Assembly (NCBI GenBank): GCA_965267185.1
Contig: OZ253937.1
Span: 327,030 to 391,029 of the forward strand
Reading direction: 5' to 3'
From: Alphaproteobacteria bacterium
GTDB taxonomy: Bacteria; Pseudomonadota; Alphaproteobacteria; UBA6615
Length of the DNA stretch: 64,000 bases
In this document: positions 51,508 through 55,745 of the stretch, piece after piece
How positions within the stretch are numbered: position 1 is the first letter of the stretch
Layout: the number at the start of each line of letters is the position of its first letter
Notes under the pieces: model-generated
Told to the model about the DNA's origin: nothing
What the model saw: only the letters and a program-made list of their open reading frames with translations
Databases searched by the model: none
Translations under genes and position numbers: made by a program

Positions 51508-51648
51508 GGGGAGACCATCCTAACCCCTATCTGTTAACGGGCGCGGGCGCGCCGGTCCATCGAAATCGCCGCCGGGATTTCGCCTGCACCGATTGACGCC
51601 CCCAGCGGCGGGACTTAGGGTCGCCGCGCCTTACATTATGTCGTGCTC

Positions 51649-53319
51649 ATGACCGATTCCTTGACCATTGCCCTGGCGCAGCTCAACCCGACCGTCGGCG
51701 ATATCGACGGCAATGTGGCGCGTATCCGCGCCGCCCGTTTAGCGGCCGCCGCCGGCGGCGCCGACCTGGTGGTCGGCACCGAACTGTGCGTCTCGGGCTA
51801 TCCGCCGGAAGATCTGATCCTCAAGAATGCCTTCCTTGAGGCGGCGCGCGCCGGCGTCGAGACGCTGGCGGCGGAGACCGCCGATGGCGGGCCGGGATTA
51901 ATCGTCGGCGCGCCGTGGCTCGACGATGATGGCAAGCGCTACAACGCCGCCTTGGTGCTCGATGGCGGCAAGATCGCGACCCGGCGCGACAAGTACGACC
52001 TGCCCAATTACGGCGTGTTCGACGAGAAGCGGGTGTTCGATGCGGGCGCGCCGCCGGGCCCGGTGAACTACCGCGGCGTACGCTTGGGCCTGGCTGTCTG
52101 TGAAGACATGTGGACGCCCGACGTGTCGGAAACGCTCCAGGAATCCGGCGCCGAGCTTTTGCTGTTTATCAACGGCAGCCCCTATGAGCGCGACAAGGTG
52201 GATGTGCGGCTCAACCTGGCGGTGGCCCGGGTGACCGAGACCGGCTTGCCGCTAATCTATGTGAACCAAGTGGGCGGGCAGGACGAACTGGTGTTCGACG
52301 GTGGCTCGTTTGTGCTCAACGCCGACCGCAAGATGGCCGCCACGTCGCCCCAGTTCGTCGAGAACGTGTCGCTCACGCGCTGGCAGCGCGGGGAGGGCGG
52401 CGCGCCGTGGTCCTGCACCGAGGGCGAGCTGACCAGCCAGATCGAGGGCAGCGAGCGTATCTACCAGGCGATGGTTCTGGGCCTGCGCGACTATGTGAAC
52501 AAGAACGGCTTCCCGGGCGTCGTGCTCGGCCTGTCGGGTGGTATCGATTCCGGCATCACCGCCGTCGTTGCGGTGGATGCGCTGGGGCCGGAGCGGGTGC
52601 ATTGCGTGATGATGCCGTCGCCGTTCACCAGCCAGGAAAGTCTCGACGACGCCCAGGAATTGGCCGACCGGCTGGAGGTACGCCTCGACAGCGTCGCCAT
52701 CGAGCCGGCGATGAACGCCTTCGACGATATGCTCAAGCAGGCCTTCAACGAGCCGTCATCCGGCGTCACCAAGGAAAACATCCAGAGCCGGGCACGCGGG
52801 CTCACCCTGATGGCGATCAGCAACACCACCGGCGCCATGCTGGTCACCACCGGCAACAAGTCGGAAATGTCGGTCGGTTACGCCACGATCTACGGCGACA
52901 TGGCGGGCGGTTACTCGGTGATCAAGGATGTCTACAAGACCGATGTGTTCAAACTCTGCCGCTGGCGTAACGAACACTATCCCACGGGCGTGTTGGGCCC
53001 CGCCGGCGATGTGATCCCCGAGCGCATCATCACCAAGCCGCCCTCGGCGGAGCTGCGGCCTGACCAGAAGGACGAGGATTCGCTGCCGCCCTATGACGAA
53101 CTCGACGCGATCCTGCACGGCTTGATCGAGGAAGATTTGGGGGCCGACGATCTGGTTGGCCGTGGTCATGACGTGGACACGGTGCAGCGCATCTGGCGGC
53201 TTCTCGAGATGTCCGAATATAAGCGCCGCCAGGCGCCTCCGGGGGTGAAGCTGACCAGCCGCGCGTTCGGCCGCGACCGCCGCTACCCGATTACCAATGC
53301 GTTCAAGGGTAAGGCCTAA
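51649..53319 (+). CDS. nadE: Glutamine-dependent NAD+ synthetase
   Basis: Nitrilase domain (EL...GYPPEDL, K..LPNYGVFDE.R, CED.W) plus GLSGGIDS, ENIQSR.RG, TGNKSE, PPSAELRP.Q.D. Confidence 0.96.
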   Translation: MTDSLTIALAQLNPTVGDIDGNVARIRAARLAAAAGGADLVVGTELCVSGYPPEDLILKNAFLEAARAGVETLAAETADGGPGLIVGAPWLDDDGKRYNAALVLDGGKIATRRDKYDLPNYGVFDEKRVFDAGAPPGPVNYRGVRLGLAVCEDMWTPDVSETLQESGAELLLFINGSPYERDKVDVRLNLAVARVTETGLPLIYVNQVGGQDELVFDGGSFVLNADRKMAATSPQFVENVSLTRWQRGEGGAPWSCTEGELTSQIEGSERIYQAMVLGLRDYVNKNGFPGVVLGLSGGIDSGITAVVAVDALGPERVHCVMMPSPFTSQESLDDAQELADRLEVRLDSVAIEPAMNAFDDMLKQAFNEPSSGVTKENIQSRARGLTLMAISNTTGAMLVTTGNKSEMSVGYATIYGDMAGGYSVIKDVYKTDVFKLCRWRNEHYPTGVLGPAGDVIPERIITKPPSAELRPDQKDEDSLPPYDELDAILHGLIEEDLGADDLVGRGHDVDTVQRIWRLLEMSEYKRRQAPPGVKLTSRAFGRDRRYPITNAFKGKA

Positions 53320-53338
53320 CGTCTTGTCCTTGGTTTAA

Positions 53339-53461
53339 CCCTCTCCCTGAGGGAGAGGGTGGCGAGCGCATGCGAGCCGGGTGAGGGTTTAGGAACGGTT
53401 GGAAAACATCCTGGATATATCTTACCCCCTCACCCCAACCCCTCTCCCCATGGGAGAGGGG
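53339..53461. repeat. REP inverted doublet (CCCTCTCCC...GGGAGAGGG...GGGTGAGGG family)
   Basis: Unit 1 CCCTCTCCCTGAGGGAGAGGG...GGGTGAGGG; unit 2 CCCTCACCCC AA CCCCTCTCCCCATGGGAGAGGGG in inverted orientation. Confidence 0.82.
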
Positions 53462-53465
53462 CTTT

Positions 53466-53507
53466 CGCCGCTATCCGATCACCAATGCATTCAAGGGCAA
53501 GGCGTAG
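53466..53507 (+). repeat. Orphan copy of nadE 3' end (RRYPITNAFKGKA*)
   Basis: 36/42 nt identical to 53278-53319; all 6 differences at synonymous third positions (including TAA/TAG). Confidence 0.93.
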
Positions 53508-53522
53508 AGTGCCGCGGCGGGA

Positions 53523-54122
53523 TTAACTGCCCTGGCGATTCGAGAGCAGGGTATCGAACGTCGTCGAGTTTTTCTTTAGACGATGTGGCACGGCGCCACT
53601 CGATAAATCGAATAGATCGCTCGAGCGAACCTCGACGACGTTGGCCGCATATTCGCCTAGATGCCGGCATTGCACTTTCCCGCCCCGTTCGCCGGTTACC
53701 TTATTGATGCTGTCCGAGGGATATTTGAAGCAGACGCCATAGCCTTTGCCATCGTTTCGAGGCACCAATCGCCACTTGGAGGGGACTGCGGCAGCATTGC
53801 CCGGATACCAGAGATAGGCATTGCCGGTGTCGGAGAAATACTCGATCTGTGTGCCGTGGCCGGGCCGACGCTGGCAGCTCGTCACCGTATAGCAAATCGT
53901 CTGGCCGGGATCGTAGGTCATGATCGTCTTATCGGCGATAAATGCGCGCGCTTCCTCGTGCGGCATCGCGTTGATTTCGCTGATCTCCCGCCCCAACGTG
54001 GAGACATTGTTGTAAACGCTCGGCGAACACGCCGCCAACCCAAGCGCCAACGCGCAAACAACGGCCCGCGGAACTTTTCTGAAAGTGGCGCAAGCAGACG
54101 ACGTTAATACCGCAATATTCAT
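53523..54122 (-). CDS. Hypothetical lipoprotein
   Basis: Lipobox LAAC; HGTQIEY....AYLWYPGN, CF.YP, four further Cys. Confidence 0.7.
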   Translation of the reverse strand: MNIAVLTSSACATFRKVPRAVVCALALGLAACSPSVYNNVSTLGREISEINAMPHEEARAFIADKTIMTYDPGQTICYTVTSCQRRPGHGTQIEYFSDTGNAYLWYPGNAAAVPSKWRLVPRNDGKGYGVCFKYPSDSINKVTGERGGKVQCRHLGEYAANVVEVRSSDLFDLSSGAVPHRLKKNSTTFDTLLSNRQGS

Positions 54123-54237
54123 CGCTTCGAATGTTCTCCATTTGCCTGAAAACGTGAGGGGGTTTTATTAGCGCAGTTTCCTAAAAGATTCCTACCTCCC
54201 CCGACTGCGGGTAGGGCAATAGGGTTAACCGCTTGAT

Positions 54238-54266
54238 TTGCCTTCATTTCCGTTCGGCGCTATACA
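54238..54266 (+). promoter_or_regulatory. Sigma-70-type promoter upstream of cysS leader
   Basis: TTGCCT-17 nt-TATACA; expected start site falls at about the ATG at 54275. Confidence 0.6.
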
Positions 54267-54274
54267 GCGTCCTT

Positions 54275-54328
54275 ATGGAGATACGTTCCCATCGATGTTG
54301 CGCGGCCAGCCGGCGAATTACCGGCTGA
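54275..54328 (+). CDS. Putative leaderless Cys-Cys leader peptide (MEIRSHRCCAASRRITG)
   Basis: 17 codons with tandem TGT TGC, 67 nt upstream of cysS; 3' part overlaps hairpin CAGCCGG-N7-CCGGCTG. Confidence 0.6.
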   Translation: MEIRSHRCCAASRRITG

Positions 54329-54395
54329 AGACGTTGCCGCTGCGCGGATTTCCCGCGCCGCTTCGTCCGCGCAATCTGATCTTGGGAACCCCTAA

Positions 54396-55745
54396 ATGAC
54401 GCTCCAACTCCACAATACGCTGACCCGCTCGAAAGAGGTTTTCACGCCGCTCGATGAGAGCCGTGTGCGCATGTACGTCTGCGGGCCGACGGTCTATGAC
54501 GACGTGCATATCGGCAATGCCCGGCCGCTCGTGGTGTTCGACGTGCTCTACCGGCTGCTCAAACATAGCTACCCGGACGCCAAGGTCAGCTATGTGCGCA
54601 ACATCACCGACGTGGACGACAAGATCATCGACCGGGCGGCTGAGAGCGGTGAGGCGATCGACGATCTGACCCGGCGCACCACCGACCGTTTCCACGAAGC
54701 GACAGCGGCGCTGGGCTGCCTGGAGCCCGATGTGGAGCCGCGGGCGACCGACCACATTCCGGAAATGATTTCCCTGATCGGTACCTTGATCGAGAAAGAC
54801 CACGCCTACGAAGCCGAAGGCGAGGTTTTGTTCAGCGTGCCGTCGATGGCGAACTACGGAAAGCTATCGGGGCGCAACCGCGACGAGATGATCGCCGGTG
54901 CCCGTGTCGAGGTATCGAGCCACAAGCGCGATCCCGCCGATTTCATTTTGTGGAAGCCGAGCACGGCGGACCAGCCCGGCTGGGACAGCCCGTGGGGCCG
55001 CGGCCGGCCCGGCTGGCACATCGAATGCTCGGCCATGAGCGAGAAACATTTGGGCAAGGCGTTCGACATCCATGGCGGCGGGGTCGATCTGGTGTTTCCC
55101 CATCATGAAAACGAGATTGCTCAGTCGCTGTGCGCCCATCCGGACGAGACCTTCGCGCAAACGTGGGTACATAACGGTTATCTGATGAGCGAAGGCGAGA
55201 AGATGTCGAAGTCGCTCGGCAACTTTTACACCGTCATCGAACTGCTCGACGAGTTTCCCGGCGAGGCCCTGCGCTTGGCGCTACTCAAAACCCACTACCG
55301 CCAACCGCTGGACTTCACCAAAGAGGGCGTGCGCGAAGCCAAGCGGGAGTTGGACGGGTTCTATGGCGCGCTGCGCGTTGCGGGAAAAGAGAGTTCCGGC
55401 GACGTGGCGGCTTCGGTGCTGGACGCCCTGGCGGATGATTTGAATTCGCCGGCCGCGCTGGCCGAACTGCATGTATTGTTGAGGGGCGTGAACGCGGGCA
55501 ACACCGACGCAGCAGAACTGCGTTCCGCAGGCGCAATCCTCGGGCTGCTTCAGCAGGATGCTGACGCGTGGTTCCACGGCGTAGATGATGGGGCAGCCGA
55601 GATCGAGGCCTCGATTGCGGCCCGCAACGACGCCCGCGCGGCGAAAGACTTCGCAGAGGCCGACCGCATCCGCGACGAACTGGCGGCGCAAGGCATCGCG
55701 CTCGAAGACGGGCCAGATGGCACCACGTGGCGGCGGGACGGGTAG
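54396..55745 (+). CDS. cysS: Cysteine--tRNA ligase
   Basis: YVCGPTVYD..HIGN, GRPGWHIECSAM, DIHGGG.DL.FPHHENE, KMSKSLGN. Confidence 0.97.
   Translation: MTLQLHNTLTRSKEVFTPLDESRVRMYVCGPTVYDDVHIGNARPLVVFDVLYRLLKHSYPDAKVSYVRNITDVDDKIIDRAAESGEAIDDLTRRTTDRFHEATAALGCLEPDVEPRATDHIPEMISLIGTLIEKDHAYEAEGEVLFSVPSMANYGKLSGRNRDEMIAGARVEVSSHKRDPADFILWKPSTADQPGWDSPWGRGRPGWHIECSAMSEKHLGKAFDIHGGGVDLVFPHHENEIAQSLCAHPDETFAQTWVHNGYLMSEGEKMSKSLGNFYTVIELLDEFPGEALRLALLKTHYRQPLDFTKEGVREAKRELDGFYGALRVAGKESSGDVAASVLDALADDLNSPAALAELHVLLRGVNAGNTDAAELRSAGAILGLLQQDADAWFHGVDDGAAEIEASIAARNDARAAKDFAEADRIRDELAAQGIALEDGPDGTTWRRDG

Follow-up and report, generated by a model that had tools for sequence, protein, structure and literature searches.

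A duplicated nadE tail around a single MITE-like element in an alphaproteobacterial genome, best read as a recombination scar

Palindromes are known breakpoints, and repetitive extragenic palindromic sequences (REPs) have been reported as sites at which duplications and illegitimate recombination events are joined. REP/BIME elements (BIME, bacterial interspersed mosaic element) and REPINs (REP doublets forming hairpins), the latter with REP-associated tyrosine transposases (RAYTs), were reportedly described by Shyamala et al. in 1990 and Bertels & Rainey in 2011, and homology-facilitated illegitimate recombination is said to have been treated by De Vries & Wackernagel in 2002. Insertion with long target duplication is an integrase-free process that leaves direct repeats of more than 30 bp, present once in the empty genome (Furuta, Abe & Kobayashi 2010, PMC2853133); these repeats often overlap gene 3' ends, the H. 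influenzae examples being 46 bp long (PMC2853133), and the process is also attributed to Nobusato et al. 2000. During E. coli conjugation, most recovered events duplicated 109–950 bp of the anchor and did not delete it (PMC3240628). C-terminal displacement is known from orphan arrays at rhs, cdiA and type VI secretion system effector loci, where a new 3' end takes the place of the old one and the old end persists downstream (for example Kirchberger et al. 2017, PMC5361080); it has been attributed to homologous plus illegitimate recombination. The locus analysed here lies in a 64,000-nt stretch (the window, to which all plain coordinates refer) of an alphaproteobacterial genome (GCA_965267185.1, contig OZ253937.1, positions 327,030 to 391,029), where the 3' end of the NAD+ synthetase gene nadE occurs twice, on either side of a short palindromic element. 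Our best reading is that this structure is a recombination scar and not a transposon footprint or a REP-made cassette. We consider it likely that the two nadE tails are xenologues, juxtaposed when DNA from a related bacterium recombined into the spacer between nadE and cysS; homology would have served at one end and an illegitimate join at the other.

The gene nadE (51643–53319, plus strand) encodes a glutamine-dependent NAD+ synthetase of 558 aa, as judged by its open reading frame (ORF), its Pfam domains (CN_hydrolase, 1.5e-30; NAD_synthase, 6.5e-74) and a gene order conserved in the family. Repeat alignment shows that its final 13 codons and TAA stop (53278–53319, plus strand; tail G, the genic tail) recur at 53466–53507 on the same strand as 13 codons and TAG, outside any long ORF (tail O, the orphan tail). 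The direct repeat spans 41 nt at 88% identity (53278–53318 versus 53466–53506), or 36/42 positions with the stop codons included, and the chance of a match of at least 36/42 is about 9e-16 per position. All six differences (TAC/TAT, ATT/ATC, GCG/GCA, GGT/GGC, GCC/GCG and TAA/TAG) are synonymous and fall at third codon positions (P=5.7e-4 for 6/6 under uniform placement), and both tails encode RRYPITNAFKGKA*. A repeated nadE tail with six differences, all synonymous, had been reported in a first-pass annotation of this DNA, and that claim was borne out, with the repeat comprising 13 codons plus the stop. The same bias appears when the 11 ungapped orphan tails of the genome are pooled: differences at codon positions 1/2/3 number 9/12/43 (43/64 third; chi-square P=6e-8). 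Since the differences are concentrated on third positions, both tails of a pair would have evolved under coding constraint. Judged from this pattern, the paired tails appear to have diverged as working gene ends in different lineages and not as the recipient's own target duplicated, and one of the two nadE tails appears to be foreign. The nadE tails are about as divergent as those of two species of one genus; in a congeneric yardstick pair (G011/G024) the nadE tails also differ at 6/42 positions, all silent.

The 146 nt that separate tail G from tail O consist of a 17-nt spacer running from the nadE stop to the element (53320–53336) and a single element of ~125 nt (53337–53465, plus strand; nhmmer score 135, family-model positions 1–127). 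The first-pass annotation had described a pair of inverted REP-type palindromes here. These are located as described, at 53339–53359 and 53439–53461, but they are not two REPs: they are the terminal CCCTCTCCC-n3-GGGAGAGGG hairpins of one element, the third hairpin of which is formed by an inner stem (53379–53394 and 53420–53435, the GGGTGAGGG/CCCTCACCC pair). Folded as single-stranded DNA, the nadE copy yields three hairpins at -37 kcal/mol (z = -4.6). The gap to the orphan tail, given earlier as 4 nt, also needs correction: the conserved end of the element, ...GGGAGAGGGGCTT, abuts the tail within 0–1 nt. A family profile built from 13 copies was searched against the 4.33-Mb genome and found 19–20 full-length copies and about 8 longer variants (186 to 445 nt), about 28 loci in total. 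The element is about 123–129 nt long, with sharp, conserved ends (left AACCCTCTCCC..., right ...GGGAGAGGGGCTT; full copies 121–129 nt). It is non-coding and sits in short intergenic spacers, mostly 9–75 nt past a stop codon, and the left end of the nadE copy lies 17 nt past the nadE stop; none of the other ~27 element loci lies inside a gene. The family is present in 27/46 genomes of the taxonomic family, representing 10/18 genera. Being short, non-coding, multi-copy and well defined at its ends, the element has the characters by which a miniature inverted-repeat transposable element (MITE) is recognised. No short target-site duplication was seen at 19 copies, a search for an autonomous partner found no pair of element ends enclosing a transposase, and a search of the element against Rfam gave no family, the sole match being a chance miRNA (E=0.73).

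With regard to its origin, the nadE copy belongs to a young subfamily whose members are 87–97% identical. Its identity is 87–94% to 13 copies in the same genome and does not exceed 85% to any copy from another genome; a tree places it in a genome-specific cluster, with another copy of its own genome as sister. Its 8 differences from the subfamily consensus lie within the range of the members (4–10), as does its mean identity to the 13 others (0.90; members 0.90–0.93). In the yardstick pair G011/G024, by comparison, the best cross-genome identity between element copies is 90% versus 94% within a genome. Moreover, a donor under about 20% neutral divergence is not compatible with silent differences at six of the 14 third positions (P<0.05). 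Because the copy is typical of the genome's own subfamily, it would not have been imported together with the foreign tail; it appears instead to be resident, having arrived by transposition within its own lineage. This disfavours the earlier suggestion that a REP doublet plus gene tail is the minimal imported unit. It should be underlined that a long flanking direct repeat was found at only 1 of about 47 element copies (19 here, 28 in relatives), namely the nadE copy.

Downstream of the orphan tail, in the opposite orientation, lies an ORF of 199 aa, gene305, which is possible cargo (53523–54122, minus strand). The 17 nt 3' of the nadE stop and the 17 nt 3' of the orphan stop are 7/17 identical (P=0.13), at which level homology is not demonstrable. 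A candidate post-stop homology that includes a shared GGNTTAAC box (7/17, P=0.13, or 10/21, P=0.03) was discounted because AAC is the element's own end on one side and TTA is the stop codon of gene305 on the other.

Orphan tails were sought throughout the genome by comparing the last 30–39 nt of every gene with 20 kb on either side. The gene set used for genome statistics came from our own heuristic based on ORFs and on GC content at third codon positions (GC3); it comprised 3781 genes and missed glmS, whose two orphan tails are therefore uncounted. The scan gave 12–14 intergenic tail copies with a retained stop, all downstream of their own gene at distances of 188–3246 nt, with about 1.6 false positives expected. 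Upstream of genes it found no intergenic tail copy with a retained stop, except for internal repeats of the repeat-rich gene62. When whole genes were compared with nearby intergenic DNA, an unbiased spaced-seed scan recovered the same loci, with every fragment extending to the 3' end of the gene, and its only "head" matches were tRNA halves. The DNA that separates a gene from its orphan has a low GC content (0.46–0.56; genome 0.606) and carries between one and three accessory genes, the cargo at these other loci amounting to 0.4–3.2 kb. The nadE locus is the sole gene-less scar in the genome, the next-smallest spacing between gene and orphan being 454 nt. The core of our reading is that the same integrase-free process also gave rise to the other orphan gene tails, at least 13 in number, and to the two orphan tRNA halves.

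The recombinase content of the genome bears on this. Site-specific recombinases are limited to two tyrosine recombinases (PF00589, near 2.479 and 3.787 Mb), which are possibly XerC/D, and two serine recombinases (PF00239, at 3.095–3.104 Mb). All four genes are distant from the orphan-tail loci, in or near which no recombinase was found; no recombinase is involved in cis. The check for a RAYT gene flanked by REPs, called for by the first-pass annotation, was run and gave no PF01797 match: this single-contig genome, 99% complete, has 0 RAYT/Y1 transposases, and the same search scored in 6/14 control genomes. With no more site-specific recombinases than these four and no Y1 transposase, the genome nevertheless contains orphan gene tails (at least 14) and orphan tRNA halves (2).

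The tRNA cases are as follows. For tRNA-Leu(TAA), a second copy of the 3' half, which extends from the anticodon loop to the gene's end over 61 nt (60/61 identical), lies 1991 nt downstream (G000:C1:428397-430480; L146:398-2480) across an insert of GC 0.52 that carries ORFs of 283 aa and 103 aa without an integrase, in the same layout as the orphan tails of protein genes. For tRNA-Cys(GCA) it is the 5' half (47 nt, 45/47 identical) that is repeated, 1398 nt upstream of the gene's 5' end (G000:C1:871070-872550; L147:271-1749), with a 340-aa ORF in DNA of GC 0.48, again without an integrase; this is the only case in which the duplicated piece is the 5' side of the gene. A further locus, G000:C1:588237-593300, shows two stacked cassettes (184-aa and 196-aa genes) behind the gene at 588237-590792, with an orphan tail after each. 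About 1 kb of GC-0.47 DNA follows the last orphan without a trailing tail, which parallels the position of gene305 behind the nadE orphan.

When placed beside the described systems, the nadE scar is rated as belonging to a known, poorly characterised kind of recombination scar; particular to it are the lack of a gene between the tails and a junction at the foot of a palindromic element. Like insertion with long target duplication, it shows a long repeat (42 nt), no recombinase nearby and one tail per nadE in 29 relatives. Unlike that process, in which the recipient's own target is duplicated and the insert contains restriction-modification genes, the nadE copies appear xenologous and the insert is a gene-less resident repeat. 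In mechanism the scar comes nearest to homology-facilitated illegitimate recombination and single-crossover duplications, and to the displacement arrays at toxin loci. By analogy with the first two, one end would be anchored by homology and the other joined illegitimately, as is proposed for nadE. Those laboratory events have identical anchors, unlike this natural one, in which the lineages would differ at about 14% of the tail positions (silent only) and the stubs would be 30–110 nt long. The element itself resembles REP/BIME/REPIN sequences in being extragenic, palindromic, multi-copy and placed just past stop codons. It differs from REPs and REPINs in being a single asymmetric ~125-nt unit with three hairpins, at about 28 loci in a genome without a RAYT, and in showing no enrichment at the other junctions. 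Toxin-tip arrays exchange distinct tips together with immunity genes, unlike nadE, where both tails encode the same 13 residues and no function is exchanged. Integrase-mediated integration at 3' ends (attL/attR) also differs, in that the tyrosine and serine recombinases lie far from every orphan-tail locus, and so does the template/variable repeat pair of a diversity-generating retroelement (DGR), as the mismatches are not confined to adenines (no search for a reverse transcriptase was made). A gene-less scar constrains how such structures can form, for it indicates that the duplication needs neither a function encoded by cargo, such as a nuclease or restriction-modification, nor an integrase. 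It also needs no double-stranded circular intermediate, for which 188 bp would be very small. The silent-site pattern would shift the interpretation of "long target duplications" from duplication of a target to homology-anchored capture of a relative's DNA.

As to the order of events, we tentatively favour one in which nadE with its MITE was resident and a foreign nadE stub with gene305 was then joined at the foot of the hairpin. The resident arrangement would have been nadE, 17 nt, the MITE and the cysS leader. The incoming fragment from a relative would have carried a 42-nt stub of the nadE end, 15 nt, gene305 and the conserved cysS leader, in that order. Its right end may have recombined homologously in the leader or in cysS. 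Its left stub (42 nt, 86% identity) would have been too short and too diverged for RecA; an illegitimate join may have attached it to the MITE at the outer foot of the terminal hairpin, where stalling or breakage is likely to occur. The orphan tail would then be foreign, recent and non-functional, nadE would retain its own tail, and gene305 would be the cargo. This order is supported by the five closest relatives, all of which carry a REP or MITE after nadE, and both of the presumed parental arrangements would fit the family gene order nadE-(REP)-cysS. A further indication comes from age. The 8/127 private differences of the MITE copy imply about 2.6 changes in 42 neutral nt, and the probability that the 28 first and second codon positions of the orphan would be unchanged is 0.17. 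As the orphan shows no change at these positions, the MITE insertion looks older than the orphan. Had the MITE landed later, by chance, in a gap of ~20 nt, a coincidence would be needed, since only 0.5–0.7% of gene ends (19–28/3781) carry the element and there is no other gene-less scar in the genome; this coincidence is softened by the nadE flank being a REP hotspot in all close relatives.

Several points weigh against the order that we favour. Low-GC cargo elsewhere lies between gene and orphan and is followed by DNA of native GC, whereas at nadE the cargo lies beyond the orphan; this is countered in part by g502, which also has about 1 kb of foreign-looking DNA past its last orphan. A donor with nadE-gene305-cysS is absent among the sampled genomes, the three homologues of gene305 lying elsewhere. 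The native tail is assignable neither by similarity nor by codon usage, which are tied, and the age argument presumes that the private differences of the MITE postdate its insertion. The breakpoint at the hairpin foot rests on one coincidence, as the other 13 junctions show no enrichment of hairpins or REPs, and the right flank of the element is loosely like the CTT(A/T)GCGC of other copies, which fits a later, target-guided landing. At nadE the hairpin foot of the element coincides with the breakpoint to within 0–1 nt, a flush junction that would fit the known role of palindromes as breakpoints, and whether the foot had a physical role as breakpoint at this junction seems to us nearly balanced, if leaning slightly towards no. 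The fuller proposition, that the outer hairpin foot of a REP-type element was the physical breakpoint which captured a foreign fragment whose essential-gene stub was too short to recombine, we hold to be rather doubtful. Were it true, accessory genes (here gene305) would be gained without an integrase at palindromic repeats lying just past core genes, which would act as landing pads, and orphan tails would be stubs of incoming DNA instead of displaced native ends.

The closest competitor reverses the sequence, and we regard it as possible but doubtful: the nadE end of a relative would have recombined in nadE, and the MITE would have transposed into the gap afterwards. The resident arrangement would then have been nadE ending in tail O, 15 nt and gene305. 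The foreign fragment would have ended about 17–22 nt past its stop, and its non-homologous end would have been joined 42 nt upstream of the resident stop by homology-facilitated illegitimate recombination, so that tail G, ~20 nt and tail O stood side by side without cargo before the MITE landed. Such a course would give nadE the geometry of the other 13 orphans, in which a foreign tail with foreign DNA precedes the native orphan and native downstream sequence. It also agrees with the position of the MITE 17–18 nt past the stop, where 9–75 nt is usual, with its flanks (A/T-rich left, GC-rich CGCC-type right), which roughly match the flank consensus of the family, and with the region 3' of nadE being a landing hotspot for repeats in all five closest relatives. 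With 19–28/3781 gene ends carrying the element, however, a landing in one particular gap of ~20 nt is a priori below 1%, and a gene-less scar free of a MITE exists nowhere in the genome. An older orphan would be expected to carry about 2.6 substitutions, but none is seen at codon positions 1/2 (P about 0.17), and the insertion of gene305 would have left no scar of its own. The same objection from age (P about 0.17) applies to an improbable course in which the MITE first hit nadE 42 nt before its stop and the gene was then rescued by the nadE end plus MITE of a relative. With the left crossover in nadE and the right one in the MITE, no illegitimate join would be necessary. Both flush junctions and the absent cargo would be accounted for, and the MITE does appear to be resident; G017, one of the relatives, has a MITE of the same family 2 nt past its nadE stop, and the element family is 80–90% conserved across genera, sufficient for a homology arm. 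Against this, the intermediate would have had to be viable while a gene that is normally essential lacked RRYPITNAF..., which is conserved even between classes; no element at the other ~27 loci lies inside a gene, and the left flank at -42, GCGAC, does not resemble the A/T-rich one seen at other copies.

Two readings that treat the insert as imported or emptied are both very improbable. In one, tail G, the 17 nt and the MITE would have come from a donor as a unit, the MITE end serving as the breakpoint and the join to the resident gene lying at -42. Adjacency of nadE and the MITE does exist in the family (G017), a flush junction at the hairpin foot would fit, and by analogy with the other loci the DNA between tails would be the donor's. 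The MITE copy, on the contrary, is indistinguishable from resident copies (mean 0.90; 8 differences from consensus), the 6/14 silent-site differences exclude a donor under about 20% neutral divergence (P<0.05), and congeners with equal tail divergence show a cross-genome MITE identity of 90% against 94% within a genome. In the other, cargo genes between the tails would have been lost, either by illegitimate deletion or by recombination of two MITEs, leaving one MITE. Other loci indeed carry 0.4–3.2 kb of cargo, and recombination between two direct MITE copies leaves exactly one complete copy. But cassettes elsewhere in the genome are not bounded by MITEs, this course would demand a deletion on top of two additional insertions lying flush with the ends of the cassette, and no residual cargo sequence is present, the leftover 17 nt matching nothing. 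The direct repeat around a mobile-looking element could further suggest duplication in situ, through a long target-site duplication or replication slippage at MITE insertion followed by drift, or else a DGR template/variable pair; this we consider highly improbable. An orphan so formed would drift everywhere, but the differences are only synonymous (P=5.7e-4; pooled 6e-8); 46 other element copies lack such a repeat, and the sequences that follow the two tails are unrelated. The DGR option is contradicted by the substitutions themselves (T/C three times, G/A, C/G and A/G), all of which are silent and not adenine-specific. In-situ tandem duplication and a target duplication made by the MITE were ruled out as candidates by the silent-site pattern together with the unrelated downstream flanks.

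Comparison with relatives places the locus in a conserved setting, the gene order MFS<-nadE->cysS (MFS, major facilitator superfamily) being conserved across the taxonomic family. The five closest relatives (G017, G011, G014, G012 and G024; L002-L006) have nadE DNA that is 84–86% identical, and in all five the nadE stop is followed within some 15 nt by a REP or MITE. That of G017 belongs to the same element family, in the opposite orientation, 2 nt past the stop, and those of the other four belong to a different REP family. The 3' flank of nadE has been repeatedly colonised by repeats that differ in family, position and orientation, and a repeat after nadE is perhaps selected as a terminator between nadE and cysS. 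None of these five relatives has an orphan tail, and there is one tail per nadE in 29 relatives. G017 is the nearest relative sampled, and its nadE tail matches tail O at 39/42 positions and tail G at 34/42. Over the five relatives the values are 33–39/42 for tail O and 32–38/42 for tail G, with codon preference tied and silent sites saturated. A mosaic test of nadE against the same five gave no resolution, all being about 84% identical with no switch near the 3' end. A closer relative was sought, and the best metagenome contig was 85% identical at the amino-acid level. The public sequencing runs contained only the source sample and distant relatives; their contigs break inside the element, and no alternative junction was visible in them.

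The nadE-cysS spacer is about 900 nt longer here than in relatives. Within it, gene305 converges on nadE, its stop being 15 nt from that of the orphan tail, and its predicted product has an N-terminus resembling a signal peptide or lipoprotein. GC3 is 0.68 for gene305 versus 0.85 for nadE. It has no Pfam match and is absent from the 45 other genomes of the family. Three homologues (38–47% identical) were found among 5.8 billion proteins, in unrelated contexts and one of them in a Primorskyibacter genome; as regards a donor context for gene305, the neighbourhoods of these homologues were all unrelated. A third, decayed nadE tail was sought between gene305 and the cysS leader, and nothing scored above the controls. 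Similarity to relatives resumes at 54222, in the conserved cysS leader (54222–54395, plus strand; alignment with G011, G014 and G012), which is a candidate right homology arm. Two other public runs, one of them a marine metagenome, each contain a 151-nt contig identical to 54226–54376, and nothing else of 52900–54400 occurs in the same two runs above about 92% identity; this points either to extreme conservation of the cysS leader or to a recent transfer of the piece between lineages.

The first-pass annotation had further proposed that REPs help to create such junctions and are enriched at orphan tails. Intergenic repeat families were catalogued by all-against-all BLAST (113 segments), and a repeat element lies within 100 nt downstream of 2.9% of all gene stops. 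Just beyond the orphan tail, an element was found at 2/14 loci (SLC13 and g765; P=0.06), the ordinary post-stop position, which suggests that these two orphans are former native gene ends. Just before the orphan tail, nadE was the only case of 14. Among the 11 orphans outside the 64-kb window, which had no part in suggesting the idea, 1 had a repeat element (P=0.27). Judged by the annotation's own refuting condition, the proposed enrichment was not borne out by this weak test (n=14), and REPs as general makers of junctions are not supported by it. At the junction between cargo and orphan, the best perfect stem measured 10 bp at nadE and 4–6 bp at the remaining 13 loci (control mean 5.3). As for the two cases that had been cited beside nadE, the "REP doublet" at the MFS gene turned out to be a weak local hairpin that belongs to no repeat family in the genome, and the REP beyond the SLC13 orphan tail is present there but occupies the usual post-stop position.

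Nor is the MITE-like element enriched beside low-GC3 genes, which make up 4/56 of its neighbours versus a baseline of 29%. The large gaps beside some copies are mostly ORFs of normal GC overlooked by the crude gene finder. Two loci show other rearrangements that involve the element. At G000:C1:628880-628929 its left 50 nt are fused to a REP of another family (cctcgtcctgagcttgtcgaagg), and this chimeric repeat adjoins about 1 kb of GC-0.50 DNA. A tandem duplication of 741 nt at G000:C1:816350-817276 repeats the head of a 195-aa gene, and each of its junctions carries a 186-nt variant of the element.

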